Origin: an uncultured delta proteobacterium
Lineage (GTDB): Bacteria; Myxococcota_A; Polyangia; Polyangiales; Polyangiaceae
Direction of reading: 5' to 3'
NCBI GenBank assembly: GCA_963716725.1
Contig: CAVQUB010000032.1
Span: 128,001-192,000 of the forward strand
Length of the DNA stretch: 64,000 bases
Below are positions 9,880 to 26,455 of this stretch, piece by piece. The notes beneath the pieces were generated by a model. It was not told the DNA's origin. It searched no databases and saw only the letters and a list, made by a program, of their open reading frames with translations. How positions within the stretch are numbered: position 1 is the first letter of the stretch; every line of letters starts with the position of its first letter. Made by a program: the position numbers and the translations under genes.

Positions 9880-9896
9880 CATTACACTGGGTAATG
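9880..9896. promoter_or_regulatory. Putative TA operator palindrome
   Basis: CATTAC-ACTGG-GTAATG immediately before the antitoxin ATG. Confidence 0.55.
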
Positions 9897-9898
9897 CA

Positions 9899-10162: not shown

Positions 10163-10535
10163 CGTCCTGTTGCGCCTCTTGCTCGACGACGACGAGGAGC
10201 AAGCGCGTGCGGCGAGGGCTTTCCTGCGAGCGCATGCCCCGCTGTTCGTCTCGCATGTGGTGATCGTCGAGGCGTCGTGGGTGCTGTCGAGCGCATATCG
10301 GTTTTCGCGTAAACAGCTCGGGGAAGTCTTGAACATGCTGCTCGACACCGAAGGTTTGACCGTCGAGCGTCCCTCGATCGTCTCGGCAGCACTCCGCCAT
10401 TTCGGGGCATCGAGCGCTGACTTCTCCGATTGCTTGATCCTCGCGACGGCGCAGGCCGCTGCTGCCGCGCCACTCGCGACATTCGACCGAAAGCTCGCGA
10501 AGCTGTCGGGGGCACGGCAGATCGGACGCAAGTGA
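10143..10535 (+). CDS. vapC: PIN-domain VapC toxin
   Basis: DTNVLLR, VIVE, ADFSDCLI, TFDRKL acidic PIN residues. Confidence 0.88.
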   Translation: MAAADTNVLLRLLLDDDEEQARAARAFLRAHAPLFVSHVVIVEASWVLSSAYRFSRKQLGEVLNMLLDTEGLTVERPSIVSAALRHFGASSADFSDCLILATAQAAAAAPLATFDRKLAKLSGARQIGRK

Positions 10536-10610
10536 GGTGACGCAGAGCACGGGGATCGGGCTGTGGCCCCGATTGCTCCGCCGCGGCCCGCCCCCAAGCC
10601 CCCAACTTAC

Positions 10611-10705
10611 TCACGCCCCAAACCAACGCCGATCCCGAAAGCTCCCCCGCCAGCGTCACCAAGATCTCCCTCGGGTCACTGGTCTTCAACGCCGGCAACG
10701 CCGCC
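10611..10705 (-). repeat. Orphan 3' tail A of the ArsA-like ATPase gene
   Basis: Encodes AALPALKTSDPREILVTLAGELSGSALV; matches about 24483-24576. Confidence 0.9.
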
Positions 10706-10778
10706 GGCACGCGGTCGAGGCGTGGCTCGTCATGCGGATTGCCCGCACCGACACTTGCCCCGATTACGCACGCGGCGC

Positions 10779-10979
10779 ATGGTTGTGGGATGCGGGGCGG
10801 CATCGGGCATCGGGCATCGGGCACTCGTACCGCTGTTGAGCGCCCTTCTCGGCTTGGGCTCCAGCGCCTGCGCACCGGAGGGGGACGGCGCGAGCGCCGG
10901 CTACAAGGTCAAGATCTTCCTCGCCTACTGGAACGGTCCCAGCGGGACGACGTTCGGGGTCGCGTGGGACTCGTGGTGA
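10779..10979 (+). pseudogene. Internally deleted copy of the S8 peptidase lipoprotein gene
   Basis: 10740-10896 matches 21462-21681 and 10901 onward matches 23513 onward; about 1.8 kb missing, leaving signal peptide fused to the last ~25 codons. Confidence 0.8.
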
Positions 10980-10987
10980 GGGAGGCG

Positions 10988-11743
10988 ATGGTGCGGGCGG
11001 TCAGGATTTCAGCCGTGTGCCTGCTTCTGGCCGGGGTCGGCTCGAGCTGTGACGGCAACGTCGCGGGAGAGCCAGACGCCGGGGCGGCGGGCGCGGCCGG
11101 GTTCGGTGGCAGCGACGGAGCTCCGGGTGGGGGCGGTGGCGGCGCCCTCGACGGCTCCGCGGACGCCGACGGCCCCCTCGGGGCGTGCGCCGCGGAGCAG
11201 GCGGCGTTGATAGCGTTCGTGAAGGCGAACAAGGCATGCACGGCGGATGCGGACTGCGTCTTCGTCAGTGCGGAGTCCGGTATTCAGGAGCTTTGCCCGA
11301 GCCAACACATCCAGGCGGGCGGGTTCTACCTGAACGCCTCCCACGCCAAGGCAGAGTTCGAGAAGCTGGCCAATGCCCTCGACGCCTGTCTGCCTCCGCT
11401 TCTGCAGTGCAATCTGAGTCCCTTCCCGGCCGTATGCTGGCATGGGCAGTGCGAGGGCGGCCTGAGCGGCAAGACCCAATGCCTCTCAGACCTCGGCGGC
11501 GAGTCCGCATGTACGAAGTGCGCGTGTGGACCCTGCGCGTCTGCTTGCCGGGGTTTACCGGAGCGCCCCGTCGTCCTCTGTGCCCTGAAGGCCGGGTGCC
11601 TGGGCACGCCGAAGTGCGATCCGGCGTCGCCCGCCTTCCCGTGCAAAGAGATCCTCGCCAACTCGCCAGGCGAGACCTACCACTACTGCAACGAGTGCAT
11701 CGCGGACTGGCAGTGCGCGGCGGACTGCGCCGCCGGCAAGTGA
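10988..11743 (+). CDS. Cys-rich lipoprotein (copy 1, intact)
   Basis: GGAGG RBS, VGSSC lipobox, Gly linker, many Cys; paralog at 23600-24358. Confidence 0.75.
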   Translation: MVRAVRISAVCLLLAGVGSSCDGNVAGEPDAGAAGAAGFGGSDGAPGGGGGGALDGSADADGPLGACAAEQAALIAFVKANKACTADADCVFVSAESGIQELCPSQHIQAGGFYLNASHAKAEFEKLANALDACLPPLLQCNLSPFPAVCWHGQCEGGLSGKTQCLSDLGGESACTKCACGPCASACRGLPERPVVLCALKAGCLGTPKCDPASPAFPCKEILANSPGETYHYCNECIADWQCAADCAAGK

Positions 11744-11865
11744 GCGCGCAGGTTTGCGGTTGGAGTGCGCCGGCGCGACGCCACCCGACCGTGTCCTGAC
11801 CTGAACCAAGCGCAAGCGACGACCTGTGGTGGACCAGTGGCTTGCACCCTGCACGCCTCAGCGCC

Positions 11866-11985
11866 TCACCCCCCAACCAACGCCGTTCCCCCCAGCTCCC
11901 CCGCCAGCGTCACCAAGATCTCCCTCGGATCGCTGGTCTTCAAGGCAGGCAATGCAAGTAGCGGCGTCTTCTTCCGCACCATGCC
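11866..11985 (-). repeat. Orphan 3' tail B of the ArsA-like ATPase gene
   Basis: Encodes GMVRKKTPLLALPALKTSDPREILVTLAGELGGTALVGG*; matches 24483-24602. Confidence 0.9.
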
Positions 11986-12453
11986 CAACAGGGATCGCCC
12001 AACTAGCCCTTAAACAAGCGCTTGCCGAGCCCGGTCGCGAGCCGTGTGAGCGTCAGGGAGCGGGACACACCACGACTGCCGACCTGCGCGAATCGCGCCT
12101 CGGCGCCGACCCGCTGCCCAGAACTCGATGTCCCATCGGCGGTCCGCCTCGAACCCCTTGCCGACACGGACGTGCCATTCGCTCATCAGGAGCGGATCGT
12201 AGCATCCGGTCGTAGCTCGGCCAACACGCCCGCGGCGTACCGCAACTGCGACTCGGTGCCGCCTGCGCCGACGATGCCTTCGACGCGCGTGAGCCGATTC
12301 GGGACGGACCAGTCGAGCACGGGCCCGCTGGAGCCGAGCGTCGCGTATCCAGCCCCACCCGACCGCAACAGCGACATCGAACGGCTCCCAGCACTCGAAA
12401 ACCTCGGGAATTTCGCGGTTCGGAAAGTCGAGTTGCAGGCCCGCGCAACCCTG

Positions 12454-12479
12454 GAAAGCCCTGTGACCGCAGGGCTTTC
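12454..12479. terminator. Hairpin, possible terminator
   Basis: GAAAGCCCTG-N6-CAGGGCTTTC, 10-bp stem. Confidence 0.45.
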
Positions 12480-12521
12480 GCGTTTCTGCCACCTGCTTTG
12501 AACTTCGACCGTCGAGCCGCG

Positions 12522-12683
12522 ATGAGCAACGGCGAGAACGCGGACAATGAGAGGACGGCCGCGGTGCTCCCCGCCGCGATCGACGAAGGGATCGCCGAGC
12601 TCGATGCGGGTCTTGGGCAAGAGACGACCGAGGAGCTGATGGACGAGCTCCGTCGCGACGTGGGTCACCGTGGATGTCAGCGT
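12522..12683 (+). pseudogene. ParD-like antitoxin fragment
   Basis: AAIDEGIAELDAGLG...EELMDELR resembles the C-terminus of ParD-type antitoxins; no partner toxin. Confidence 0.35.
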
Positions 12684-12709
12684 GAGGCAGGCTCGTCCAA
12701 CGCGTCATC

Positions 12710-13024
12710 ATGCTCGACCTGTTCATCCCGCCATCCGCGCGACGGCTGGTTCGCTACACCGTGCCCATCAACGTCCGCTTTGGCGCTGACCGTCTCCGCC
12801 TCGCCTGCAAACGCGACCTCGGGCTGACGCTCGATCCGGCGACCGCCGTGCGCTTTCATAATCGAAGGAAGGATACGCTCGTGCTCTACACGCGCGATCA
12901 GAGCGGTAATCGCTGCATCGCGAAGAAGCTGGAGCGAGGCGCGTTCCTCCTCCCCGTTCCTGCGGAGGGCCAGAAGTGCGTGGTGCTCAACGCCTCGAAG
13001 GTCGCGAGTCTGTTTCGCACGTGA
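12710..13024 (+). CDS. IS66-type accessory protein (TnpB/Orf2-like), stand-alone
   Basis: PINVRFGADRL...FHNRRKDTLVLY...KKLERGAF pattern; no IS66 transposase nearby. Confidence 0.65.
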   Translation: MLDLFIPPSARRLVRYTVPINVRFGADRLRLACKRDLGLTLDPATAVRFHNRRKDTLVLYTRDQSGNRCIAKKLERGAFLLPVPAEGQKCVVLNASKVASLFRT

Positions 13025-13073
13025 TCGCGCCCGGAGCGCGCCCCTGCGATCCTGATCGGGCATGGTGGTGTAG

Positions 13074-13880
13074 ATGGCCTCCACGCACGTGTCCGACAGC
13101 GCCGAGCAGAGACGCGCCGAAGCCTTCGTGCTCAAGGCACTCGGGACGAAGCTTGGAGTCGAGCTCCTGCCACGCACGTTGCAGTTGCCGGACGGCTCAC
13201 TCGTCGAGATCGACGGAGGCGCGGACGGCCCGCCGCCGATTCTCGCGGAAGTCTACGCCCTCCAGGGTCGGCTGAAGGGAAGCCAACCGGACAAGCTGCT
13301 TGCCGACGCATTCAAGCTGGTGGCCGCACGCAGGCTCGCGATCCCCTGCGGCCACGCCCGCCTTCTGCTCGTCCTGACTGACGACGACGCTGCCCGCGGG
13401 TTGCGAGGTGGCTGGAGAAAGGCCGCGCTCACCGCGATGGAGGTCGAGGTGCACGTGGTCGCGCTCCCGACCGACATCGCAGCGGGGGTTCGGTCCGCCC
13501 AGAAGCGGCAGCAGATGGTGAACGCGGCCAAGCAGGGCGCCGGATCTGCGTTGCCTCCTCGCCAAAACGAGCGACTTCTCGGGCTGCACAGGATGGTGGC
13601 CGTTCCAACGCAAACCGGGCATCCTTTCATCATGCACGCGCACGCGAACGACCTCGCATCGGCAATCCCAAGCGCGCCGTTCGATGACCTCGACCTCGAC
13701 CGTCCCGAGGACGAGGAGGAGTGGGAGCGCCGGGTGATGGCGCTCGCCGCCGCGCGCATCGCGGCCGAGCGCGTCCGCCTCCAACGGCTCGGCATCATCG
13801 ACGCGAACGGCGATCTCGTCTCGCGCGAGTTGCCGCCGGACATGCTGCCCGACTCGGATACGACGCTCGAAACCGGCTGA
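13074..13880 (+). CDS. Restriction-endonuclease-like fold protein running in frame into a small acidic putative antitoxin (second start 13632)
   Basis: AE...VEIDG...LAEVY pattern in the first ~150 aa; final 82 aa form a distinct acidic module just upstream of the zeta-like ATPase. Confidence 0.5.
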   Translation: MASTHVSDSAEQRRAEAFVLKALGTKLGVELLPRTLQLPDGSLVEIDGGADGPPPILAEVYALQGRLKGSQPDKLLADAFKLVAARRLAIPCGHARLLLVLTDDDAARGLRGGWRKAALTAMEVEVHVVALPTDIAAGVRSAQKRQQMVNAAKQGAGSALPPRQNERLLGLHRMVAVPTQTGHPFIMHAHANDLASAIPSAPFDDLDLDRPEDEEEWERRVMALAAARIAAERVRLQRLGIIDANGDLVSRELPPDMLPDSDTTLETG

Positions 13881-13886
13881 CCCGCG

Positions 13887-14471
13887 ATGTCGCAGCCGCG
13901 CATGATCGTCGTCGCCGGCCCCCCAGGCAGCGGCAAGACGAGGTTCTTCCCGGTCACGGGTTTCGGCGTCGATGCGTTCAACATCGACGACCGGTGCGCG
14001 CAGATCCTCGGGAGCTACCGCGCGATCCCGCGCGATGTCCGACGCGCCGTCGCGAAGGAGTGCGAGCGATTCGTCCTCGATCACATCATGCGACGGGAGT
14101 CGTTCGCGGTCGAGACGACGCTTCGGACCACGGCCGCGATCGGGCAAGCGGAGCTCGCACGCAAGAACGGCTTCGCCACCTTGATGCGCTTCGTCGCCAC
14201 GGACTCGATCGCCGAGAACGTGGCGCGCGTGCTGCAACGCGCGCAGGCGGGCGGCCACGGCGCGTCCGAGCGCGAGATCCGCGCGATCCATCAAGCGAGC
14301 GTCGAGAATCTCCGGAAGGCAGTCGGTACCTTCGAGCGCGTTCGTGTCTACGACTCGACCACACGATGGACGCCACCCCGGCTCGTCGCAGTCGCGCGCG
14401 GCGGGCGGCTCGTGGTTCAGGGAGCGACCCCCGGCTGGCTCGAAGCCGCGCTCGCGAACGGCGATGCGTGA
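13887..14471 (+). CDS. Zeta-toxin-like P-loop ATPase/kinase
   Basis: GPPGSGKT Walker A, SFAVETT, RAQAGGH motifs. Confidence 0.8.
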   Translation: MSQPRMIVVAGPPGSGKTRFFPVTGFGVDAFNIDDRCAQILGSYRAIPRDVRRAVAKECERFVLDHIMRRESFAVETTLRTTAAIGQAELARKNGFATLMRFVATDSIAENVARVLQRAQAGGHGASEREIRAIHQASVENLRKAVGTFERVRVYDSTTRWTPPRLVAVARGGRLVVQGATPGWLEAALANGDA

Positions 14472-14826
14472 CTCACCGCCCAATCGCGATCGACCCAGCG
14501 AACGCTACCCAGACCTCGGAAACCCCCCGAAACTGCTGGGCAGGAAAGTCGAGTTGCTCGTGCACAGCACCCGGTCGGCCAGTGCCTGATCCGGAGCCTG
14601 ATGGTGCCCGCTGGCTCTTTGGCGAGCCGAAAGCAGCGCCCATCCGCCCGCTTCCGAACCGGCTCGACGAGCCAGGCTGAGGGCCGTGGAATCAGACGCG
14701 GGCACGGCATGCCAGGCGCTGGGCGGAAGGACGGGAACGGGCCCCAGCTCAAAAGGCACTCACCCCGCCACCAACGCCGTTCCCCCCAGCTCCCCCGCGA
14801 GCGTCACCAGGATCTCCCGCGGGTCA

Positions 14827-15333
14827 CTAGTGCCGCGCGGCCGAAGTTCGAGTGGATTCGCCCCTGAGACCTGCGCTCATTTGGGCTCTCACAGGAAGGG
14901 CGGAAGAGCGGAAGGATTTGGGGGGGTCAGGCGTGAGCCCCCGCAGGCCATTTCTGAGCGCGGTCACGTTGAAGTTGACGAGCAGGCCGCCAGGCAACTG
15001 CGAAAGGCGCAGATAGGTGATGACCTGCGCTTCGTGAATCGGGAGCAGCCGCTCGACCGCCCCGAGCTCCAGGAGGATATGATCTGGAAGCGACCAGGTC
15101 GAGGCGATAGGCGCAGTCAAGGTGCACGCCTTTTTGGCGGATTGGTAGCGGATTGGTAGCGGTCGCTGCCGCTCGAACCTGAGCCGTCGTTCGGACAGCT
15201 CGGCAGATAGACAGGCCTCGTATGCGGATTCCATCTGCCCTGGACCGAGATGCCGATGCACCTCGATCAGCGCACCGATCACCTCGTCCGTCCCATCCCC
15301 AAATCTTCCGAGCTTTCGCCCTTCCTGTGCCAT
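14827..15333 (-). pseudogene. GxxExxY protein, degenerate
   Basis: EVHRHLGPGQMESAYEACL and AQVITYL...GLLVNF; an 11-bp duplication near 15137-15160 shifts KGVHLDCAYRLDLV out of frame. Confidence 0.8.
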
Positions 15334-15466
15334 CCCCGTGCGAGCGGAACCGTCGGACGACCACCGTGCGCTCGGCCCGCGAACGCGCTGTAGTCGATCA
15401 TGTCACCCCACTACACCGACGACACGCACACGGAAAAGAAACCAGCGAAACTTCTGCCGCGCGCCA
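14831..15466. mobile_element. 636-bp non-autonomous IS630-like element (MITE) inserted at CTAG
   Basis: TIRs TGCCGCGCGGCCGAAGTT and TGGCGCGCGGCAGAAGTT (16/18), CTAG on both sides, empty site reconstructable from the other copies. Confidence 0.8.
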
Positions 15467-16352
15467 CTAGTCTTCAACGCCGGCAACGCCGCCAGCGGCG
15501 TCTTCTTCGGCACCATGCCGGCCAGCGCGGTCAGCGCCTGCCGCGTCTGACCTTCCCGCGCCCCGAACTCCCTCCGATACGCGGCGATCGCGTCGCCGAG
15601 GGCGGGCTCACTGCCGATGCGCGCTTCGATTTCAGAAATCCACGCGGGCGTCGCGCCCACCGCGCGATTCAGCAACACCGCGGTCGCATCCAGCGATCGA
15701 TCCCGGAGCTGGCCGATCAGGTACTCCGCGTCGTCGAGGGAGCTGCCGCTCGGGCCGGTCACGACCACGTAGCGCGTGCTCCCTCTTCAGGGACTTGCCC
15801 CTCCGGGCACTTCCCAGGGTCGTCCCAGGGTCGTGGGCAGCGCGATGCGCTTCTCGACGTTGCGCACTAAGTGCAGCCACTTCTCGCGCACCGGCATGAA
15901 CTCCCCGAACAGCGCCGCGATGTCCCGGATCGCGATGGCGCCGACCACGTTCGAGACCAGGTTGTTCCTGCCTCCCCTCGTCTCGCTTCGCTCGCCGGTC
16001 CCCTCCAAGCCCGGTGCGCGCGAGGGGTGGCGTCATGTCAGAAACGCGCACGCCTTGCCGACGCTCGCGCGCACGCGGGCGGAGGGGACGCGTTGCTCCG
16101 GGTGAGTGGCGTTCGTATTCGCCGGGCGTAGGTGGTCCCGAACGGAGCCATGTGGTGGCTCTGGCTGTAGAACTCCTTGAACGCTTCGGCGCAGCGGCGC
16201 CACCTCATAGTCGGGTGGAGGGGACGCGTCGCTCCGCGCTGGGTGCGCGCTCGCCACCTGTGGGCAAGGCTCGCGAGTGGATCAAGCCGTCCTCGGGCCG
16301 TGAGGCATTTGCCGGATGGCGTCGAGCGCCCGAACGAGGACACCGAGGTGGA

Positions 16353-16649
16353 TCACGATCCCGCCGCGGCAGGCCGCCCGGGGTGGATCAGTCGGTGGCC
16401 CGCGAATGGATCAGTCTTAAGCCGCCGCCAAAGCTCGGGCGTCCTGCGATCCTGCTCCCAGTTAAGAAGCGTGTGCACGCTGATCCCGAGCGGCTCGGCG
16501 AACTTCGCCTGACTCAGCCCGATGAATCGCCGTAGGGCAGCGACGTCCCCCGGTTCAAGCTCTCCACGCATGATGCGCTCGCGCTGGCTCCGCCGCAGGT
16601 GTCGTGCAAAGTCGGCTCGGGTGAGTTCACGGGTAGACTTCATGACCAC
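16353..16649 (-). pseudogene. XRE/HigA-like HTH antitoxin truncated at its C-terminus by an IS21-like end
   Basis: LRRFIGLSQAKFAEPLGISVHTLLNWEQDRRTPE, then foreign sequence. Confidence 0.65.
16381..16430 (-). mobile_element. IS21-like terminus
   Basis: TG...ACTGATCCA-N-ACTGATCCA reiterated motifs as in IS21 ends; joins the truncated HTH gene. Confidence 0.45.
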
Positions 16650-16688
16650 TTGATGCCGCTCGCTCGCAGCACTTCGCGCGGAACTTCC

Positions 16689-17180
16689 TCAAGCAACCGC
16701 TTGCCACTCGCGCCCCGAAACACGGAGGTTGATCTTCGCCGGCTCGTGACTGTTGGAGTCGATGTTCGCCAACTTCTCCAGTGGGTACTCCTCAATGGGA
16801 CGACCGTGCACCACCATCATGCGGAGAAGCCGGTCGGACTGCTCTCCGATCGGAAGGGCATCGTTCTCCCACTTGGAGAGAATGGTCGGATCCACACCAA
16901 CATGGCGGGCAAAATCGACCCCCGAAAACCCGAGTATCTTCCGCAAGAATCGTACCTCCATCCCCGTGAGCCGGCTCGGCTTCATGGTGACGGCGAGTGC
17001 GATGGCTCGATGAAGATGTTCCACGGCGGAGATGATCACCACGTGCTCTTTGCACATGGGGCAGCGGCGCACCTCCACGTTGTCGAGCCACACATTCGGG
17101 AGCCCCGAATCGGTGTAGTTCACGCGCTCTCGCCCGCTAACGAGATCGCCTTTGCCGCACGCTCTGCACTTTCGTTTCAT
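16689..17180 (-). CDS. MqsA/YgiT-type zinc-finger + HTH antitoxin
   Basis: CRAC...CPMC zinc ribbon; LTGMEVRFLRKILG...LSKWEN HTH. Confidence 0.85.
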   Translation of the reverse strand: MKRKCRACGKGDLVSGRERVNYTDSGLPNVWLDNVEVRRCPMCKEHVVIISAVEHLHRAIALAVTMKPSRLTGMEVRFLRKILGFSGVDFARHVGVDPTILSKWENDALPIGEQSDRLLRMMVVHGRPIEEYPLEKLANIDSNSHEPAKINLRVSGREWQAVA

Positions 17181-17479
17181 GGCTGTGATCTCCAAACCGT
17201 CACGACGACCAGCTCGATGTCGTTCTCATCCTCCGCCTCATCGGGGGCAGGCTCGAAGGCAACGACCACCGTGATCCGCTGCGTTCGAACCCGATATCGC
17301 CAGTCTCCGTTCTCGTGCTCCGCCTCGCTGACCGTGCCGGCGCGGAGCACGTTGACGATGTCGACGTCGTTGAGCTGGTCCTTGTCGCGTTCCCTTCGGG
17401 CGTGAGGCGTCAGGTGGAAACTCCCCGCCTGCATGAGCTGGCGGATGAGCCTCTTCGCATCGTCTTTCCGAAGAGGCAC
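17177..17479 (-). CDS. DUF4258-like (RelE-fold) toxin
   Basis: FHLTPHARRE...DIVNVLRAG...WRYRV...VVVTVW; ATGA overlap with the antitoxin. Confidence 0.75.
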   Translation of the reverse strand: MPLRKDDAKRLIRQLMQAGSFHLTPHARRERDKDQLNDVDIVNVLRAGTVSEAEHENGDWRYRVRTQRITVVVAFEPAPDEAEDENDIELVVVTVWRSQP

Positions 17480-17486
17480 CCATAGG

Positions 17487-17515
17487 AAGCCTAGCCAGGC
17501 TTGGTAAATTGTCAA
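17487..17515 (-). promoter_or_regulatory. Promoter with operator for the DUF4258/MqsA module
   Basis: TTGACA-N16-TAGGCT on the minus strand; palindrome AAGCCT-N4-AGGCTT (17487-17502) overlaps the -10. Confidence 0.6.
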
Positions 17516-17652
17516 GATGGGCACCTGCTGCCAAACGCCCGACGCAGGGCTCAAATCAGCTTGTCCAGTCCACGCGTGGCGTGATCTGCGGTGGACCGGG
17601 TGTCTGCGGATCACGGTGAGGGCAACTACTCCGATCAACTACCCGAGGTGCT

Positions 17653-17985
17653 GCGTCTGACCTTCCCGCGCCCCGAACTCCCTCCGGTACGCCGCGATCG
17701 CGTCGCCGAGGGCGGGCTCTGCGCCAACGCGCGCTTCCAGCTCGGGGATCCACGCCGGCGTCGCGCCCACCGCGCGATTCAACAGCACCGCGGTCGCGTC
17801 CAGCGATCGATCCCGGAGCTGGCCGATCAGGTACGCGGCGTCGTCGAGGGAGCTGCCGCTCGGCCCGGTGACCACCACGTAGCGCGTGCCGGGCAGCGCG
17901 ATGCGCTTCTCGACGTTGCGCACCAGGTGCAGCCACTTCTCGCGCACCGGCATGAACTCCCCGAACAGCGCGGCGATGTCCCGGA
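17653..17985 (-). repeat. Orphan 3'-region copy D of the ArsA-like ATPase gene (333 bp, lacks the last ~143 bp)
   Basis: Ungapped match to 24626-24958; translation nearly identical. Confidence 0.92.
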
Positions 17986-17993
17986 GCGACGGC

Positions 17994-18150
17994 TGCGGGT
18001 AGTGAAAACCCAACCTCGCCGGGAGAATCGTGATCACGCTGCGAGCCTGTTGTATCGGCGGTGCAATCCGCCGACCCTCGGAAGCTCGACGACGCGACCC
18101 ACCGAGCGAAGCTCGAGGGGACGCGACTCCGGGCAGTCGTTGGCGAGGTG
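17994..18150 (-). mobile_element. Integrase-core transposase 3' remnant with IS end
   Basis: GRVVELPRVGGLHRRYNRLAA* C-terminal motif followed by GTTTTCACTACCCGCA. Confidence 0.55.
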
Positions 18151-18284
18151 TGGCTTCGGCGCGACCAGGTTGCGGATGGGCGAAGTAGCCACGACAACGC
18201 GCCCTACTCGCCTAAGTTCGCCCATCCGCTTTGGTCTGGCGAGCCTCTTGCTTCCCCGTGCGGGCGAGCCAGAAGCGCGGTACC

Positions 18285-18533
18285 ATGACCGGCATGCACG
18301 CGCGGAAGCTGCGAGTTGCCAACGGTCGGCTGGTGCTCGATGAACCCACGAACCTGCCCGACGGCGCGGAGGTGGAAGTCGTTGTCATCGACGACGGACT
18401 GAGCGCCGAGGAGCGCGCAGACCTCCACGCCTCGCTGGACCGCGCACTGGACGACTCAGAAGCGGGTCGAGGAATGGACGCTTGGGAATACCTGGAGCAG
18501 TATCGAGCCCGTCGTGAAGCTCGTCCTGCTTGA
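18285..18533 (+). CDS. Putative antitoxin
   Basis: NGRLVLDEPTNLPDGAEVEV...LDRALDDSEAGRG; overlaps a ParE-like gene. Confidence 0.7.
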   Translation: MTGMHARKLRVANGRLVLDEPTNLPDGAEVEVVVIDDGLSAEERADLHASLDRALDDSEAGRGMDAWEYLEQYRARREARPA

Positions 18534-18729
18534 AGAGGCGCAGCGGCAATTTGCAGCTGAGGACGCTTGGTGGCGCGAGAACCCCGACGCGAAGAACCTG
18601 TTCATCGAAGAATTCTCCGCGATGAGCTAATCCAACGCACGCTGATGAAGAAGGCCCGCTGCCACGTCTACTACTTCCACGACCAAGAGCAGGGCGTCAT
18701 CGAAGTCCACTCGGTCTGGGGTGGTCGCC
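18514..18729 (+). pseudogene. RelE/ParE-family toxin, frameshifted and cut by IS21
   Basis: VKLVLLEEAQRQFAAEDAWWREN...FIEEF, shift, ...HVYYFHD...IEVHSVWG. Confidence 0.65.
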
Positions 18730-19066
18730 TGCGCATTTCGCCCATGGTGATCACCTGTTTCACAGCATCCTGATCGCTCAATCCGCCGCATCCTGATCGG
18801 AGCGAAGCGACGTCCGAGTTGTTCGTGTGTCCTGGTTTCTCCTCGTTGGGTTCGGGTCAGCGTATCGCTCGATCCGCGCCTGGCTCAATCCGGCGCGTGC
18901 GTGCAGGTCACGGGGCGTCGGCGGCCGTCTTGCGTCGCGACGGACCCTTGAGCGCGATCCGGTGCGCAGTGTGGAGCACGCGGTCACAGATGGCGTCCGC
19001 CGTGGTTGGGTCGGTGAGGTAGTCGTACCAGTGCTTCGGGTCGATCTGGCTGGTGATGATCGTCGC
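18730..19066 (-). mobile_element. istB: IS21-family remnant (istB 3' end and right end)
   Basis: 18908-19066 encodes [45 protein letters not shown]; terminus TGCGCATTTCG with repeated GCATCCTGATCG. Confidence 0.8.
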
Positions 19067-19071
19067 CCAGC

Positions 19072-20557
19072 TACGGCGCTGAACATTCTGTAGCCGTCAC
19101 GATGCAATTGCACACCGCGAAAACCTTCGCTTTTTTCCGACTCTCCGCGCGCCAATACTGACGCGCCCGTGCATGCTCTGCTGACGACATGAGCACTCGC
19201 TCCCGCCGCACGTACGACCACCGCATCAAGCAGCAGATCGCCGAGACCGGGGATCCGGGGCTGTTTCCGGAGCTCGAGATCCCGCGCTCGACAGTTCGGA
19301 GCTGGATCCGGCGAGGCATGGGGAGCGTCGTCTGTCTGGAGCCGAACCTTGGCGCGGAGGGCGAGCTTCGCGCTCGTGTCGTCGTGCTCGAGCGGCGGAC
19401 CGCGGTGCTCATCACAGTTGTTCGACTGCTTCTGGCATTGCTACGCACTTCTGGATTCAAGCTCGAAACCTGCCGCGTGCCGGATGCGGCCGGCAAGCGA
19501 CTCTTGCTCGATGCGATCGAGCGCGCACGAAAGGTCATGGCCTTATCCGCGGCGCTCCGAGTGCTCCGCCTCTCCCGAGCGCGCTATCACGTCTGGTTGC
19601 GAGCCGAAAAAGCATGCGATCTCGACGACCGCCCAAGCTGTCCGCGCACTGTGCCGCAGCGACTGACCCAGCCGGAGGTCGAGGCAATCGGCAGCCTGGT
19701 TCAGTCCAAGGAACATCGCCACATGTCCATCCGAGCGCTGGCTTTGCACGCCCAGCGCGTCGGTGAAGTCCTCGCTCACCCGGCAAGCTGGGGCAAGCTC
19801 ATCCGACGCTACGGCTGGCGGCGGCCGAGACTCCGTCTCTACCCACCGAAACCCAAGGTCGGCGTGCGCGCGCTCGCGCCGAACGCCGCGTGGCACGTGG
19901 ATGTCACGATCATCAAGCTGCTCGATGGAACGAAAGCGCACTTGCACGCAGTCATCGACAACTTCTCTCGGAGAATCCTCGCCTGGACGATCGCCGACCG
20001 ACTCGATCCCATGAACACCCGCGACGTGCTTGTGAGGGCGGCGAGCAACCTGGAGGGGCCGATGACAGCAGAGGTCTACATGGACTCCGGCGTCGAGAAC
20101 CTCAACGCCAGCGTGGACCCGCTCTTCAGTGAAGGTTTCCTTCGCCGCGTCATCGCGCAGATCGACGTGAGCTTCTCGAACTCGATGATCGAATCGTGGT
20201 GGCGCTCCCTCAAACATCAGTGGCTGTTCCTGCACCAACTCGACAGCATCGCGACCGGCAAGAGGCTCGTGGAGTTCTACGTGGTCGAGCACAACGAGCG
20301 GATGCCCCACAGTGCGTTCGACGGGCAGACCCCGGACGAGATGTACTTCGGGCGCGGGGCTCGAGTGCCTGCCGAGCTCGCTGCTCGGCGGCAAGAGGCG
20401 CGCAAGCGGCGGCTGGACCACAATCGTCAACAAGCGTGCGACCGGTGCTCCCGTCAACACGAGGAGGACGTCGCCGCATGAAGCGTACGCTGCTTTCGAC
20501 CGGGAGTTCTGGCGAGCGCAGTTGCACAGCGTCAGCTCCAGAAGGTTCGGCGCCGCA
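19072..20557 (+). mobile_element. IS3/IS481-like insertion sequence
   Basis: About 40-bp imperfect TIRs (TACGGCGCTGAACATTCTG.. and TGCGGCGCCGAACCTTCTG..) around a DDE transposase; no target duplication seen. Confidence 0.75.
19189..20481 (+). CDS. DDE (rve integrase core) transposase
   Basis: WHVDVT, MDSGVEN, IESWWRSLK, HNERMPHSAF. Confidence 0.9.
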   Translation: MSTRSRRTYDHRIKQQIAETGDPGLFPELEIPRSTVRSWIRRGMGSVVCLEPNLGAEGELRARVVVLERRTAVLITVVRLLLALLRTSGFKLETCRVPDAAGKRLLLDAIERARKVMALSAALRVLRLSRARYHVWLRAEKACDLDDRPSCPRTVPQRLTQPEVEAIGSLVQSKEHRHMSIRALALHAQRVGEVLAHPASWGKLIRRYGWRRPRLRLYPPKPKVGVRALAPNAAWHVDVTIIKLLDGTKAHLHAVIDNFSRRILAWTIADRLDPMNTRDVLVRAASNLEGPMTAEVYMDSGVENLNASVDPLFSEGFLRRVIAQIDVSFSNSMIESWWRSLKHQWLFLHQLDSIATGKRLVEFYVVEHNERMPHSAFDGQTPDEMYFGRGARVPAELAARRQEARKRRLDHNRQQACDRCSRQHEEDVAA

Positions 20558-20559
20558 GC

Positions 20560-21319
20560 TGGCTTACGGCAACTGCGACCTGTTCCGACTCGTCACCTAC
20601 GATGCCGGCGCTTGCTCGAAGCAAAACGCCCAGGCCGCACGTGACCGCGGGCTTCACTACCTGATGGCCATCAAGAGCACACAGCCGACACTGCACGAAG
20701 AGGCCGTGCGCTGGTTGGGTGAACGTGCGCCGGCACAAGCAGCAGCAACCAGCAGCGACTTCGACCACGGCAACACCGTGGTGCGTCGGCTCTACCTCGG
20801 TGAGGCCGGCGCCGCGCCAGAAGGCTGGGACCACCTGCGCACCGTGCTCCGTGTCGAGGTCGAGACGCTCGACCAGAACGGCAATCGCATCACGGCGGAA
20901 AACCGCTACTTTGTTTCGAGCTTGCCACGCTCTCGGCTGACGGACGCGCAATGGCTCCTCGTCGTGCGTCGCCACTGGGGTGTCGAGACCTCCCACCAAA
21001 TTCTCGACACGGCTTTCGCTGAGGACGACCACCCGTGGATCGAGCAGAACCCGCGAGCGACCGTCGTCGTGATCGTGTTGCGCCGCGTCGCCTATACCCT
21101 GCTCTCACTCTGGCGCGGCGTGACTTTGCGCAGCGACGAGCAGCGCACTCGGCCTTGGCGCGACGTGATGCGCGACATTCTGCTCGCTGCCGTCACCGCC
21201 ACGGCCGAACACCTTCGCGCTTTGCGCCGCCATCGACTCGCGCCCGTCGCCACGTAGTCGAGAAGTCAGGCCTTGCGCCGCCTCGCTCTTTGACAGATCC
21301 GCTCCGGTCACCAGCCCTG
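20560..21319 (+). mobile_element. ISAs1-family transposase 3' half and right end
   Basis: VTYDAG, YLMAIKSTQPTL, RRHWGVETSHQILDTAFAEDD (stop 21257); ends ...GCCCTG. Confidence 0.75.
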
Positions 21320-21499
21320 GCTTCCGCCCCCTGGCGCTAGCCCTGGTCGGCGAGCCGAGCGCGGCCACGCCCCCCGGTCATCGCCCTCGCCCTTGCCCCT
21401 GACTCTCGCACTGGCCGGCGAAGGCCGCGCTCGGCTCGCCGACTTCCGATCAAGAGTGCTGTGCCCGCACCGACGCTTGCCCCGACCACGCACATGGCG

Positions 21500-23591
21500 T
21501 ACGGTTGGGACATGCGGGGCGGCATCGGGTATCGGGTATCGGGTATCGGGCATCGGGCATCGGGCATCGGGCATCGGGCATCGGGCATCGGGCATCGGGC
21601 ATCGGGCATTCGTAGCGCTGTTGAGCGCCCTTCTCGGCTTGGGCTCCAGCGCTTGCGCACCGGAGGGGGACGGCGAGAGCGTCGCGCGTGGCATTCACCT
21701 GCTCTCTGCTCCGCCCCTGGCCTGTGACAATGGCGTGTTCCTCACGGACCATCATCGATTCGAATACATCGGAGTCTCGGTGACGCGCATGCTGTGCACG
21801 CCCACCGGCCTCGTGTTGCCGTCTGTCGTCACGGTTGACTCCAAGACCGGCGCGGTCGTGGAATTCGCGCGATTGGCCGACGCCGATCGCGCAGCGTTTC
21901 ACGGCTGGCACGCTTCGCTCGACCCTCAGTTTCGCTCGACGCTCGAGGTGAAGCCAGACGAACCGCGGGACGCGTACGTCTGGTTCTACGTCGACGAGAG
22001 CGATGCCCCCGAGAAGGAGTGGCTGGTCGGCGAACCCACTGCCGCCGCGGCGACCGTGGCACTACGCGAAAGCCGGATGCGGTCAGCGGCTGCCTCGCTT
22101 TCCAACAAGCTGCATGCTGTGTCAGCGGTCGATGTCGCAACGGACGTGCTCGGACCTCAGGAGTACTGAATCCCGGTCGTGCGCGTTCGCGCCAAGCTTG
22201 CCGACTTGGAAGAGGTCGGAACCTGGCCCGAGGTGTGGCGAATTGACCCCGTGCCCACGACGTTCACGCCGCAGTCGGATACCTATTACTACACCACCGT
22301 GGACAACGTTTTGGACGGCTATTTCGGGTACGACGGAACCGGGCGGACCGTCGCGATGTTCGAGCAAGCCCGCCCTGATTCGTGGGCCAATCTTCCCGGC
22401 GCGGTCGCTGGCTCCTGCGCCAGACGACTTCAACGTCCAGAAGAAGTGTCATTGTGCCGCGGGGACGAAACACGCGCATCCTCGATTGGTTGCGGGCGTC
22501 GTCCGGCGGTCATGGCATGGGAATGGCCAACGAGGCTTCGACTATCGCGGCAAACCATCTGGGCGGCTGCCAGTCCAACGGTCCGGACTCGATCTCGAGC
22601 GCACTGAACTGGGCCACGTCCAACGGCGCTCAGGTGATCGTGACGACGGACATGATCACCCCGGGATCGGCGCTCGACTTCTTCTTCGACTACAAAGCCA
22701 GCGTGTCGCCCTACCCAACCATCGTAGGCGTGGCTGGAAACGACTCAGGGTCAACGTCGGATCTCACCACCGAAACGGACTTGTGACCGGCGGGGCGCTC
22801 GAGTCGCCCTCCGGCAACAGCAACCGGGGCGCGGCAACGACAGACCCCACGAAGTCCTGGAGGAACCCAACGGGAACGGCGGGCTTCGAGGTTCCGCACA
22901 TCGCCGCCATTTCCGAGGACGTTACCAGCGCTGGCTACGACCGCAAGCACAGTGGTGGATACCGGCGGGACGAGCGTCGCGGCACCGCAGGTGGCGGGTG
23001 TAGCGGCCTCGCTCCACGAGGCAAATTCCGCCATCAGGAGCTGGCCGGAGGTCATGGTCCCCGGACTGATGGTAAGCGCAAACGAGGACCTCGACGGGAT
23101 CCGGTTGAATCTCCACGATGACTGGGACGATCGCGACGGTGCAGGGCTGCTGAACGCCCATCATGCGCTCCTCGTGCTCCAGTCCTCATCGAGGGTCCAC
23201 GGCAACAACGCGCCGCCTGCGTGCGGGTCACGACTACCACGGTCTGACTGCCTACAGTACGCCCGAGCAGACGTTCTAGGTTGAAGAGTACTCGGCCCGG
23301 GTGCCTGCCGGGCTCGAGCTCCGAGTCGCCGCGCTCCTCCAGGCTCGACCAACGTGCCCGCAGAACCCCGGCTCCGGGTCGTGCACCGCCGATCCGTATC
23401 CGAACTTCGGGCTGTTCATTTACGACGGCTCGACGCTCGTCGGCGGGGCCTTGAACACCAGCAGCAACTACCAGTACATCTCGCACTTCAACACGACGGG
23501 CGTCCAGAAGGACTACAAGGTCAAGATCTTCCTCGCCCACTGGAACGGTCTCAGCGGGACGACGTTCGGGGTCGCATGGGACTCGTGGTGA
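21500..23591 (+). pseudogene. S8 (subtilase) peptidase lipoprotein, multiply frameshifted
   Basis: SSAC lipobox; VAGND; GTSVAAPQVAG catalytic Ser motif; DGAGLLNA; pieces lie in different frames. Confidence 0.75.
21524..21607 (+). repeat. Heptamer tandem repeat
   Basis: ATCGGGT x3 plus ATCGGGC x9; the paralogous site 10802-10822 has 3 units. Confidence 0.95.
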
Positions 23592-23599
23592 GGGAGGCG

Positions 23600-24358
23600 A
23601 TGGTGCGGGCAGCCAGGGTTTCAGCCGTGTGCCTGCTTCTGGCCGGGGTCGGCTCGAGCTGTGACGGCAACGTCGCGGGAGAGCCAGGCGCCGGAGCGGC
23701 GGGCGCGGCCGGGCTCGGTGGCAGCGGCGGAGCTCCGAGCGGTGGCGGTGGCGGCACCCTCGACGGCGCCGCGGACGCCGACGGCCCCCTCGGGACGTGC
23801 GCCGCGGAGCAGGCGGCGTTGATAGCGTTCGTGAAGGCGAACAAGGCGTGCACGACGGATCCGGACTGCGTCTTCGTCAGTGCTGAGTCCGGCATTCAGG
23901 AGCTTTGCCCGAGCCAATACATCCAGGCGGGCGGGTTCTACCTGAACGCTTCCCACGCCAAGGCAGAGTTCGAGAAGCTGGCCACTGCCCTCGACGCATG
24001 TCTGCCTCCGCTTCTACCGTGCAATCTGAGTCCCTTCCCGGCCGTATGCTGGCATGGGCAGTGCGAGGGCGATCTGACAGCGGCAAGACCCAATGCCTCT
24101 CAGACCTCGGCGGCGAGTCCGCATGCACGAAGTGCGCGTGTGGACCCTGCGCGTCTGCTTGCCGAGGTTTGCTGGAGCGCCCCGTCGTCCTCTGTGCGCT
24201 GAAGGCCGGGTGCCTGGGCACGCCGAAGTGTGATCCGGCGTCGCCCGACTTCCCGTGCAAAGAGATCCTCGCCGAAATCGCCAGGTGAGACCTACCACTA
24301 CTGCAACGAGTGCATCGCGGACTGGCAGTGCGCGGCGGACTGCGCTGCCGGCAAGTGA
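23600..24358 (+). pseudogene. Cys-rich lipoprotein (copy 2, frameshifted)
   Basis: Close paralog of 10988-11743 with indels near 24075 and 24275. Confidence 0.75.
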
Positions 24359-24482
24359 GCGCGCGAGGTTTGCGGCTGGAGTGCGCCGGCGCGACGCCCC
24401 CCGACCGTGTCCTGACCTGAACCAAGCGCAAGCGACGACCTGTGGTGAACCAGTGGCTTGCACCCTGCACGCCCCAACGCAC

Positions 24483-25598
24483 TCACCCCCCAACCAACGC
24501 CGACCCCGAAAGTTCCCCCGCGAGCGTCACCAAGATCTCCCTCGGGTCGCTGGTCTTCAAGGCAGGCAACGCCGCCAGCGGCGTGTTCTTCGGGACCATT
24601 CCGGCCAGCGCGGTCAGCGCCTGCCGCGTCTGACCTTCCCGCGCCGAAAACTCCCTCCGGTACGCCGCGATCGCATCGCCGAGGGCGGGCTCACTGCCGA
24701 TACGCGCTTCGATTTCGGGGATCCACGCGGGCGTCGCGCCCACCGCGCGATTCAGCAACACCGCGCTGGCATCCAGGGATCGCTCGCGCAGCTGACCGAT
24801 CAGGTACGCGGCGTCGTCGAGGGAGCTGCCGCTCGGGCCGGTCACGACCACGTAGCGCGTGCTGGGCAGCGCGATGCGCTTCTCGACGTTGCGCACGAGG
24901 TGCAGCCACTTCTCGCGCACCGGCATGAACTCCCCGAACAGCGCCGCGATGTCCCGGATCGCGATGGCGCCGACCACGTTCGAGACCAGGTGGCCGACGC
25001 GCTTCTTGCCCCAGGCCAGGAGGCCGCGCTCCCTCTTCAGGGACGTTCCAGGGTCGTCCGTCGGGCGATCGTCGAGGGCCGATCCCGCGAGCTTGGCCAG
25101 GCCCACCATCCACTCGAGCGTGCGCGCTTCGAGCATGCGGCCCAGCCGTGCGGGGTAATCCAGAAACTCCAGCGCGTGGCGAGAGGGCGCGGTGTCGAGC
25201 ACGACTTCGTCGTAGCGGCCGGATTCGAGCTCGTGGTCGATGAAGGCCACGCTGATCAGCTCGTGCACTCCGGCCAGCGCGTTCGACAGCTCGCGGTACA
25301 TGCCGTTCTCGAACACGCGGGTGCGCGCGGCCGGATCGTCGAACAGCCAGCTCACGAACAGATCGACCGACTTCTCTGCATCGGGCATGCGGGCCCACAG
25401 CTGGGCGCCGTCGATGTTCACCGGGCAGGCTTCGATGCCAACCTGCACGCCGATCGCGTCGGCGAGGCGGCGCGCTGGATCCACCGTGACCACCAGCGTG
25501 CGCCGGCCCGCGCGGGCGAAGGCGAGGGCGAGGGCCGCGGAGGTCGTGGTCTTGCCGACTCCACCGCCGCCCACCACCACCGTCAGCGCCGCGCTCAT
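24483..25598 (-). CDS. ArsA/GET3-family ATPase (second of pair)
   Basis: GGGGVGKTT, TVDPARRLAD, VVLDTAPSRHALEFLD. Confidence 0.9.
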   Translation of the reverse strand: MSAALTVVVGGGGVGKTTTSAALALAFARAGRRTLVVTVDPARRLADAIGVQVGIEACPVNIDGAQLWARMPDAEKSVDLFVSWLFDDPAARTRVFENGMYRELSNALAGVHELISVAFIDHELESGRYDEVVLDTAPSRHALEFLDYPARLGRMLEARTLEWMVGLAKLAGSALDDRPTDDPGTSLKRERGLLAWGKKRVGHLVSNVVGAIAIRDIAALFGEFMPVREKWLHLVRNVEKRIALPSTRYVVVTGPSGSSLDDAAYLIGQLRERSLDASAVLLNRAVGATPAWIPEIEARIGSEPALGDAIAAYRREFSAREGQTRQALTALAGMVPKNTPLAALPALKTSDPREILVTLAGELSGSALVGG

Positions 25599-26455
25599 GA
25601 GCTGGCTCCGAGGAAGCGCCCGAACTCGCGGGCGGTGGGATCACGAAACAGCTCCGGCACCTCCACGACCCTGTCGGCGCTGACTCCATCGAAGGCCGTC
25701 AGGGCCACCAGCGCGTCGGCGCTGAGCTCGGCGTCTTCGGCCAGGGCGTGGGCGAGGGGAGCGAAGGCCGGATCGCGCTGGGCCGCCGCGCGGGCCTGGT
25801 CGATCTCACCCGAAGCGGGCTTGCGCGGGACGCGGTTGACGACCACGAGATCTGGCGATCGTCCGAGCTCCTGCGTCAAGCGCATGACGAGCTCACGCGT
25901 CTCGGAGGCGACGACCGGCTCGGCGGTGGAGACCACTACGAGGGCGCTCTGCTCGGCGATCAGGATCTCTTCTTGGATGGCCCGGCACATCTTCGCTGCG
26001 GGGCCGATCTTCAGGAAGCGCTCGGCGGAGGCGGGGACGCGCAGCCAGTCGACCGCGTGGCCCGTCGCGGGAAGGTCCACGAAGACTCGGGCGTGGGGGC
26101 TCTCGCTGCGCAGCGATCGCAGGCGATCCAGTGACACCAGCTCGCGCACCGCCGGAACTGCCTCGACCGCTTTCTTGAGGGTGCGTTGCTTGACCACCAG
26201 TCTTCCCAGCAGGCGACTGCCGAGCATCGACGCGATGGAGTGAGCCAGCGCTTCCATGTACTCGATGACGAGGGGAGTCACGCCGTCGGCCTCGGCACCC
26301 AGCGCCCGCGTGGCGCCGGCGGCGGACTCGAACTCGACCAGGATGGCCTGTCCCCCGCGGTCCGCCTCGGCCCGCGCGAGCGCCGCTGTCACGCTGCTCT
26401 TCCCGACGCCGCCCTTGCCGGTGACGAAGACGACCGGTTGCCGCAATGCACGCAC
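25595..26455 (-). CDS. ArsA/GET3-family ATPase (first of pair; start uncertain)
   Basis: FVTGKGGVGKS, VDLPATGHA, VVVNR; ATGA overlap with partner. Confidence 0.85.
   Translation of the reverse strand: MRALRQPVVFVTGKGGVGKSSVTAALARAEADRGGQAILVEFESAAGATRALGAEADGVTPLVIEYMEALAHSIASMLGSRLLGRLVVKQRTLKKAVEAVPAVRELVSLDRLRSLRSESPHARVFVDLPATGHAVDWLRVPASAERFLKIGPAAKMCRAIQEEILIAEQSALVVVSTAEPVVASETRELVMRLTQELGRSPDLVVVNRVPRKPASGEIDQARAAAQRDPAFAPLAHALAEDAELSADALVALTAFDGVSADRVVEVPELFRDPTAREFGRFLGASS

Follow-up and report, generated by a model that had tools for sequence, protein, structure and literature searches.

Displaced gene ends in Polyangiaceae and a hairpin element related to the ends of IS91/ISCR-like transposons

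Displaced 3′ gene ends are known from several kinds of bacterial locus. When the prophages e14 and 21 integrate at icd, or islands at tRNA genes, the incoming DNA supplies a replacement 3′ end and the old end is left behind as a displaced pseudo-tail with mostly synonymous differences. In rhs and contact-dependent inhibition (CDI) arrays, displaced 3′ gene ends pile up downstream of the intact gene. Here we analyse an array of this general kind in a 64,000-nucleotide (nt) stretch of DNA (the window) from contig C32 (CAVQUB010000032.1) of an uncultured Polyangiaceae genome of 7.89 megabases (Mb) (GCA_963716725.1; here G000), in which partial copies of an ArsA/Get3-family ATPase gene, ATPase2, lie downstream of the intact gene. 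The e14, 21 and tRNA-gene cases depend on a tyrosine integrase and a fixed crossover, whereas here there is no integrase and the tail starts vary. The rhs and CDI arrays consist of polymorphic toxin tips, each with an immunity gene; the genes concerned here encode a P-loop ATPase, PurC, HemB and others, and their cargo is heterogeneous. Integron arrays and clusters of attC sites lacking integron integrases (CALINs) are similar in having co-oriented structured repeats between toxin–antitoxin-rich cassettes, but the locus described here has no attC cores, and its cassettes are 1–10 kilobases (kb) long and each start with the end of an anchor gene.

A second group of related systems comprises the rolling-circle transposons. 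Toleman et al. (2006) reportedly explained the duplicated 3′ conserved segment (3′-CS) of complex class 1 integrons by a circle rescued through homologous recombination. We know of no description of a captured gene end serving homology-directed, non-disruptive integration for IS91, IS801 or IS1294. In IS91 and ISCR elements, as described in passages of PMC13181058 and PMC13393415, rolling-circle transposition begins at oriIS, downstream of the transposase gene (tnpA), and the end upstream of that gene is terIS, which has a subterminal palindrome beside the cleavage site. Termination at terIS in the IS91 family fails in 1–14% of events, or in about half of them without Orf121, thereby mobilising the DNA beyond, and the formation of single- and double-stranded circles is experimentally established (PMC13181058, in part). 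ISCR1 and the complex class 1 integrons resemble the present case in their IS91-family transposase, structured oriIS and terIS, mobilisation of adjacent DNA and partial duplicate of a homology segment flanking the captured genes (general features as given in parts of PMC3575428 and PMC13393415). They differ in that here the segment of homology comes from the 3′ end of a chromosomal housekeeping-type gene that tail replacement apparently preserves whole; stacked events form arrays at several genes; terIS rather than oriIS abuts the duplicated segment; and the hosts are Polyangiaceae instead of clinical Gammaproteobacteria. IS91, IS801 and IS1294 share the subterminal palindrome of terIS upstream of tnpA, failed termination, circles and the absence of target duplication (PMC13181058, in part), but the DNA that they carry to new tetranucleotide targets comes from plasmids or virulence loci, and IS91 palindromes are short, whereas the element here is a much longer hairpin of ~105 nt. 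Helitrons, too, have a hairpin near the 3′ end that acts as terminator and, on read-through, capture flanking gene fragments (PMC4778049), but those fragments neither restore a target gene nor form ordered arrays at one gene. By these comparisons our finding would belong with IS91/ISCR gene capture and recombinational rescue, here acting on chromosomal genes, and repeatedly; a limited literature collection contained no paper linking IS91-family elements to myxobacteria or to arrays of displaced gene ends. We think, with modest confidence, that IS91/ISCR-like rolling-circle (HUH Y2) transposons built the array cassette by cassette, with the captured 3′ end of the host gene as the homology anchor.

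The resident anchor gene, ATPase2 (24483..25598, minus strand), is intact and encodes a BagB-like protein of 371 amino acids (aa) of the ArsA/Get3 family with its P-loop present (Pfam ArsA_ATPase PF02374, E 1.7e-27, above cut-off); the GC content at its third codon positions (GC3) is 0.89. A blastn search with positions 24300–25700 against the window and the whole genome returned four co-oriented partial copies of its 3′ region, in five pieces, all downstream of the gene and on the same strand, as an initial annotation of this DNA had described. E-values of 4e-18 to 3e-165 exclude chance, and the whole G000 genome held no tail copy beyond those in the window. Tail A (10600–10708, minus strand) corresponds to gene positions 24472–24579 (89.9% identity, E 5e-36), that is, to the last ~32 codons, with a 1-nt insertion close to its end. 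Copy B (11685–11985, minus strand) matches 24300–24602 at 91.7%, the tail proper (11866..11985) comprising the last ~40 codons and the stop codon. It is part of a larger duplicate (10740–11985) that is 95–97% identical to 21462–21684 plus 23513–24602 and takes in a Cys-rich lipoprotein gene and a deleted S8 peptidase remnant. Tail C (minus strand) is one tail in two pieces, a 5′ part (15453–15962; gene 24536–24991, 83.1% over 510 aligned nt, E 3e-165, codons ~202–354) and a 3′ end that includes the stop codon (14753–14831; gene 24476–24554, 83.5%), interrupted by an insertion of ~620–640 base pairs (bp) at ~14832–15452; a further insertion in C, of 54 nt and with a stop codon in frame, lies at ~15785–15838. 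The first ~124 nt of C are 98% identical to the resident gene, the remainder ~88%. Fragment D (17649–17993, minus strand; gene 24622–24968, 90.2% over 347 nt, E 3e-134, codons ~213–335) had been taken for a tail with a stop codon; base-level alignment shows that it lacks the final 139 nt of the gene and is an internal fragment. If D and B were the halves of one split tail, ~19–22 nt would be missing between them, and B has its own upstream remnant. The cargo does differ between the tails, as the initial annotation stated, except at B, whose cargo is not a different one but part of a duplicate of the resident gene's own neighbourhood.

Independent assemblies support this arrangement. Logan contigs, which are short, cover the array in four runs from three studies; single pieces bridge the boundaries of A, B, D and the end of C, although none spans the whole array, and in run X1 the depth over the single-copy parts is even, at 4–5.7x. 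One Logan contig links C to the flank of D through a shared 34-mer; neither it nor the stretches that lack cover were used as evidence. The tail array in the window is real.

The tails carry the signature of sequences that were once translated. By the Nei–Gojobori method, the ratio of nonsynonymous to synonymous divergence (dN/dS) between tails and the resident gene is 0.11–0.35 (0.19 for D), close to the 0.11–0.21 of orthologous intact ATPase2 genes. Comparisons of tail with tail, in which both partners are now silent, give 0.17 (C against D) and 0.18–0.25 (among the tails of the same-genus relative G003). Divergence after silencing would drive the ratio towards 1. Because the tails diverged under purifying selection, from one another as well as from the resident, and are mosaic, we conclude that they were once functional gene ends, as the initial annotation had supposed. 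The second tail of G003 (G003_t2) has no synonymous differences from its resident gene over codons 122–250 and a synonymous divergence (dS) of 0.50 over codons 251–371; in tail C of the window, dS is 0.03 over codons 203–245 and 0.27 over codons 246–354. In five of six pairs of resident orthologs, dS is 0.9–1.1 in codons 261–343 against 0.37–0.6 in the first 260 codons, and in the sixth pair 0.43 against 0.25–0.33; this roughly twofold excess in the last 83 codons of the resident genes fits repeated tail replacement. The crossover mosaics and the raised 3′ dS fit the proposal that tails are replaced by recombination within the gene, although, as described below, hairpins of the terIS type at the breakpoints mean that anonymous homologous recombination alone is not the whole of it. 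The prediction that each tail would group with a different donor allele failed: the tails cluster with the resident allele of their own genome and not with distinct distant donors. Over 724 nt, G002_t1 (from the relative G002) and its resident gene are 99.4% identical. G003_t2 departs from this grouping in its last 22 codons, where it matches the G002 alleles better (85–89%) than the G003 resident (77%).

Comparable arrays occur in related genomes. Strong tail matches are confined to the window's genus, in which all six relatives match; the tail query hit six pieces in G000, five in G002 (5 contigs) and six in G003 (30 contigs). In G003 the order is SIMPL, ATPase1, intact ATPase2 and then tails from aa 256, 122, 122 and 267, and in G002 two tails, one from aa 122 and one from aa 341, come after the intact ATPase2. 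Over all tails the starts are at aa 122 (four times), ~179–202, 213, 256, 267, 323 and 341–342. There is no fixed crossover point. The relatives' arrays have as cargo toxin–antitoxin systems (HepT/MNT, DUF5615), a kinase, Kelch, FG-GAP and RCC1 proteins, and IS110. Contigs of relatives (L002, L003, G005) break at a tail, and in two of these relatives the break falls within it, as repeats make assemblies do.

Alignment of the DNA 5′ of the aa-122 tails revealed a conserved element of ~130 nt that ends 6–7 nt before the gene fragment, and the same element precedes tail C despite the different start position in the gene. In the window it occupies 15963..16097 (minus strand, type 1) and abuts the 5′ breakpoint of C (nhmmer E 2.5e-33; 150.5 bits, E 1.4e-40 with R1, a covariance model of the element). 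Type 1 lies directly 5′ of tail C, G002_t1 and G003_t3, and a related type 2 of ~95 nt lies directly 5′ of G003_t2, G003_t4 (the tail from aa 267) and the L003_end tail; the two types have a common junction at aa 122, and an element stands at the 5′ breakpoint of tail C and of six of the eight tails in relatives. Thirteen copies fold into a long imperfect hairpin and a small one, with 39 predicted pairs, eight of which show compensatory changes. Conserved GAGGGGAGGCA follows the folded hairpins, and the elements end in ...CGGAACAACGCGTCCCC and ...GAGGGGAGGCA. R1 finds 26 matches in G000 and 14, 32, 39, 3, 13 and 1 in six same-genus genomes; beyond the genus there are weak matches in 5 of 18 other genera of the family and no match in the 16 other families searched. 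Traces at the other window tails are fainter. A possible degenerate copy, with a weak match to R1 (6.5 bits, E 0.9), lies directly 5′ of D (17998..18136, minus strand), begins with the GCGTCCCCTC arm and ends 5 nt from D; before B, a 16-nt stretch resembles by eye the 3′ end of the type-2 element, with no model match; and before A, R1 recognised no element.

Several other identities for the element were tried and set aside. Rfam scans of the array and of loci L003–L005 gave no family for it, matches to RT-19 (E 0.32) and to a microRNA model (E 0.05) being taken as chance, and no model match or motif supported a group II intron 3′ end, a retron msr/msd or an IS200/IS605-type omega-RNA scaffold. 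We also dropped a role for its GGAGG in driving translation of the tail, since the frame across the junction is not the same in all copies.

A different identity emerges from the multi-copy units of G002 and G003, in which a transposase gene has the element on its upstream side, in the opposite strand and facing outward. Among 11 ISCR/IS91-like copies or fragments examined, six have the element 30–780 nt upstream of tnpA (L019, L022, L021, L028 and, in G000, C12:54402 and C13:85679); the upstream end is a different one in the remaining five, of which four belong to a single near-identical family. The tnpA products carry Zn_Tnp_IS91 and Y2_Tnp domains and match first the NCBIfam model ISCR_clade_Ia (E 3e-83, under the equivalog cut-off) and then IS91. 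The element of the window is homologous to those upstream of tnpA (nhmmer E 3e-14 and 4e-10; R1 E 2e-21). Because its homologues sit upstream of tnpA and point outward, where terIS lies, the hairpin element corresponds, judged from sequence, to the terIS-type end of IS91/ISCR-like transposons. The opposite end, oriIS, was defined from four copies as ...GGTGGGTTTTGGCAG...CCTACGCGC, and the resulting profile recovered 20 ends, 18 in G000 and two in G002 (loci L019 and L020).

The same architecture recurs at genes unrelated to ATPase2. Copies of the element form co-oriented clusters in G000, and the DNA downstream of a copy often duplicates the 3′ end of an intact upstream gene on the same strand. 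Besides ATPase2, the anchors are purC (C34:137687–138688; the repeated tail is the last 57 or 25 nt plus ~200 nt), hemB/ALAD (C1:180906→179929; last 15 codons), a papain-type peptidase C1 gene (C5:37378→35609; last 65 codons) and a YkuD transpeptidase gene (C12:72748→70946; last ~64 codons). In all five, the element–tail units lie downstream of the intact gene and are co-oriented with it. Seven of the 13 strong type-1 copies in G000 are followed by an anchor-gene tail. The peptidase C1 anchor recurs in G002 with another tail length, and a purC tail headed by the element is present in the peptidase C1 array, on a different contig from purC. The ATPase gene is not special.

In two places transposon sequence is still present. 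The YkuD array (L026) reads, in the sense of the gene: gene, stop codon, 2.8 kb of cargo, oriIS, a truncated tnpA, terIS abutting tail 1, ~11 kb of cargo, oriIS, a whole tnpA and terIS abutting tail 2. Both tails begin at the same position, and an HUH Y2 transposase is encoded at L026 1403–3112. On a metagenome contig (L028), ATPase2 and its stop codon are followed by 4.2 kb, a truncated tnpA (a 95-aa N-terminal ISCR-like remnant), a type-2 terIS and an ATPase2 tail from aa 262, an arrangement that ties the ISCR-like transposon family to the ATPase2 anchor.

Other traces of these transposons were seen in passing. In G002, locus L006 (C2:932000–951999) holds at 5171–8822 a second ATPase2 copy, without ATPase1 and possibly frameshifted near aa 106–110, which adjoins a complete IS91-family transposase gene and an ORF (open reading frame) resembling 23S-rRNA-IVS proteins; this is consistent with whole-gene movement by the same transposon family. 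Tandem multimers are a product of rolling-circle read-through, and G000 contains tandem partial copies of another ISCR-like element, 99.8% identical with a period of ~1180 nt, at C13:110108–113300 and C8:415247–417265. At C1:141387–141812 (minus strand), a 141-aa C-terminal GyrB-like fragment, 54% identical to the genome's own gyrB product, lies between an oriIS end (C1:141972–142128) and a hairpin element (C1:139678–139812) and may be the captured tail of a foreign gyrB or parE; an alignable repeat of ~80 nt is found near it in this C1 cluster.

The series of events that we propose would start from a transposon whose terIS end, the subterminal hairpin upstream of tnpA, lies against a 3′ fragment of the ATPase gene. 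When termination at terIS fails (one-ended transposition), copying would run on through the tail, its stop codon and the DNA behind, and yield a circle of the order oriIS–tnpA–terIS|tail–stop–cargo. A single homologous crossover of the RecA type between the tail and the intact ATPase gene, in a recipient cell or in the same genome, would then integrate the circle. The gene would remain whole and end in the incoming tail, followed after its stop codon by the new cargo and then by the transposon, and the old tail, now headed by terIS, would be displaced outward. Repeats of this process would stack cassettes; later deletions would remove oriIS and tnpA, leaving solo terIS hairpins or nothing, and other mobile DNA would insert into the array. 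The anatomy of the arrays, the signature of selection, the mosaics and the identity of the element are observed; the read-through, the circle, the crossover and the loss of the transposon body we infer.

Several observations weigh against this proposal. The only confident element in the window is that of C. No end matching the oriIS profile occurs in the ATPase arrays of the window, G002 (L004) and G003 (L005), and tblastn found no tnpA on contig C32, L004 or L005. No terIS|oriIS footprint of a circle junction occurs beside any of the 20 oriIS ends, and the Logan contigs contain no circle junction. The commonest ISCR-like family in G000 (the C13/C8 copies) has a different upstream end, and no anchor gene was identified for 6 of the 13 strong type-1 copies in that genome. 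In the resident genes, the bases before the tail starts differ (GGCC, CGAT/CGAC, GGGC, GCTT, TTTT), with GTTC at purC only and no common tetranucleotide. In the ATPase and YkuD arrays the tail homology ends 0–11 nt from the stop codon, which the model does not predict. The recombination step rests on the mosaics, which gene conversion could also produce. Finally, G000 resembles a metagenome bin, with a completeness of 84% and a contamination of 3.9%.

Some of these points would be met by homologous recombination alone, in which linear DNA from a related strain takes the place of the gene's 3′ part and of the cassettes next to it, with the gene body and any older tail as the two arms, and the hairpin is a passenger repeat. 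Mosaic tails with low dN/dS and the raised dS in the last 83 codons of the resident orthologs would follow, and this reading accommodates both the lack of a transposase in the ATPase arrays of three genomes and the lack of a recognisable element at A and B. It leaves unexplained where the first duplicated tail came from, why the 3′ end of the element stands exactly at the breakpoints of five genes in constant orientation, and why that element should be the end of an ISCR-like transposon; we regard it as unlikely. We give slightly less credence to a structure-specific recombinase, acting in trans on the hairpins as on attC sites, that excises and reinserts element-bounded cassettes and carries the tails along. 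The long imperfect hairpin with its covariation, the co-oriented clusters with toxin–antitoxin-rich cargo and no recombinase inside, the element-headed purC tail in the peptidase C1 array and the aa-122 junction shared by types 1 and 2 would all suit such an enzyme, and an integron integrase (TIGR02249, 443 bits) is indeed present in G000, together with an array of genuine attC sites. That integrase is on another contig, however, the element lacks the RYYYAAC and GTTRRRY cores, and an ISCR-like transposon end already supplies an enzyme, so that no further one is needed.

Decayed islands of the classical type are improbable. Here elements with a tyrosine integrase and an attP carrying the 3′ end of the gene would have integrated serially, in the manner of phage 21 and e14 at icd, before losing their integrase genes; such a history is expected to leave displaced pseudo-tails, differences at synonymous sites and direct repeats of the target's 3′ end. 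Tail starts are scattered, however, rather than at one crossover site, and one flanking element serves five unrelated target genes. In agreement with the initial annotation, no tyrosine or serine recombinase was found among the 31 ORFs of the window or the 34 ORFs of L004–L006, and no gene with PF00589 or PF00239 lies in the window's array or in those of G002 and G003; across G000, PF00589 has 19 matches, none of them on contig C32, and PF00239 has none in this 84% complete genome. No more probable is a purely local origin, by segmental duplication of the 3′ region inside the genome and transposon-adjacent deletions with no DNA from outside. The grouping of tails with their own resident allele, the near-identity of G002_t1 to its resident and the duplication of the resident's neighbourhood (B, the Cys-rich gene and the S8 remnant) speak for it; against it, the dN/dS of 0.17–0.25 between tails is divergence under selection, unlike that of silent local duplicates, the end of G003_t2 is closer to the G002 alleles, and the cargo differs between tails. 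An assembly artefact from mixed strains in a metagenome bin, to which the completeness and contamination of G000, the contig breaks at tails in relatives and the Logan link from C to the flank of D might point, is scarcely credible given arrays of the same kind in genomes of 5 and 30 contigs, even depth in X1 and pieces that bridge tail boundaries in runs from three studies.

More tentatively still, and with our judgement almost evenly balanced, the stacking of cassettes by ISCR/IS91-like transposons may be a genus-wide strategy, in which transposons carry a host-gene 3′ end beside terIS for homology-directed, scarless entry, and housekeeping-type genes serve as reusable docking sites that gather ordered stacks of defence, toxin–antitoxin and secreted-protein cassettes while their 3′ ends are repeatedly swapped between strains. 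If this is right, genomic islands could arise at fixed chromosomal sites without an integrase there, the transposon providing the circle and the borrowed gene end the address, and the model developed for ISCR1 and complex integrons would reach from resistance plasmids to the chromosomal housekeeping genes of large-genome soil and water bacteria. It would also account for the breaks at certain gene ends in assemblies of these genomes and would predict faster allele turnover in the 3′ parts of anchor genes. Displaced tails would then be dated molecular fossils of earlier alleles that could serve to reconstruct histories of acquisition.

The partner of ATPase2, ATPase1 (25595..26536, minus strand; Pfam ArsA_ATPase E 1.3e-16), is a BagA-like member of the ArsA/Get3 family, and the synteny SIMPL–ATPase1–ATPase2 is conserved in L001, L002, L005, L007 and L027. 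BagA and BagB are the top NCBIfam models for ATPase1 (E 1.9e-12) and ATPase2 (E 3.2e-44), respectively; both scores are under the equivalog cut-offs, so we claim only family-level membership for the pair. The ATPase1 stop codon overlaps the ATPase2 start in G000, unlike in G002 (L004 1389–1553 and 17245–17706), where an AbiEii-like ORF lies between the two genes and an ATPase1 fragment (aa 259–313) stands at the far end of the array.

G000 also has a true chromosomal integron, at C8:385300–395200 (L016 2300–12178). The 385-aa IntI (L016 11021–12178, minus strand) is the only one in the genome and is not beside the ATPase array; next to this gene, at intervals of 0.5–1.5 kb, stand attC-like repeats, at least 10 in number and ~165 nt long, whose cores are of the GCCTAAC...GTTAGAC type. 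Similar attC-like repeats without an integrase occur at C7:149.7–156.6 kb and just downstream of purC on C34. The hairpin element was rejected as an attC site because it lacks RYYYAAC (R″) and GTTRRRY (R′) cores at the hairpin foot, where the true attC sites of G000 have GCCTAAC...GTTAGAC.

The cargo of the window array, as annotated from Pfam matches, includes toxin–antitoxin pairs, insertion sequences and genes for secreted proteins. Behind A lie a MazE/AbrB-type antitoxin and a PIN toxin (VapBC-like; 9860..10535, plus strand). Behind B, the Cys-rich lipoprotein gene occurs a second time, along with an S8 remnant that has an internal deletion (10740..11743, plus strand; 95–97% identical to 21462–21684 and 23513–24364). 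The cargo behind C (12710..14471, plus strand) includes a zeta-toxin-like kinase (13887–14471), the partner ORF upstream of it and a fragment of IS66 TnpB (12710–13024), and between D and C (16353..17638, minus strand) lie toxin–antitoxin-like genes for DUF4258, MqsA-like HTH and HTH_31 proteins. Two DDE insertion sequences (19189..21257, plus strand; Pfam rve, DDE_Tnp_IS240 and DDE_Tnp_1), one IS3-like with an rve domain (19189–20481) and one with DDE_Tnp_1 (20196–21257), have inserted into the array and show raised depth in the Logan contigs.

The insertion that splits tail C (14832..15452, minus strand) is a repeat of ~640 bp with a GxxExxY/PD-(D/E)XK_3 gene (14827–15333; Pfam PDDEXK_3 E 3e-29; TIGR04256). 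Its depth in the Logan contigs is 19–94x against ~2–6x in the surroundings. About 30 more copies of the repeat (14828–15471) are spread over most contigs of G000 at 88.8–99% identity (most at 93–99%), many with an extra 0.4–1.1 kb between two conserved parts, and the copy in tail C has ACTAGTG on both flanks. The repeat looks like an active small mobile element.

Beside the resident tail, the cargo (21393..24364, plus strand) consists of an S8-peptidase-like gene in several frames (Peptidase_S8 fragment) and a Cys-rich lipoprotein gene convergent on ATPase2. Compared with the window, Logan contigs show 1-nt insertions or deletions at 22419, 22516, 22752, 22939, 23215, 24274 and 24365; since these single-base differences come from independent contigs, the frameshifts in the S8-like and lipoprotein genes may be assembly errors and not those of real pseudogenes. 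A run of ~15 units of 7 nt (GGCATCG or GGTATCG) at 21507–21611, with a shorter run in the paralogous copy at 10792–10826, immediately precedes the part of the S8-like gene that encodes the signal peptide, or falls inside it. Because the gain or loss of a single unit shifts the frame, the run may be a slipped-strand switch.

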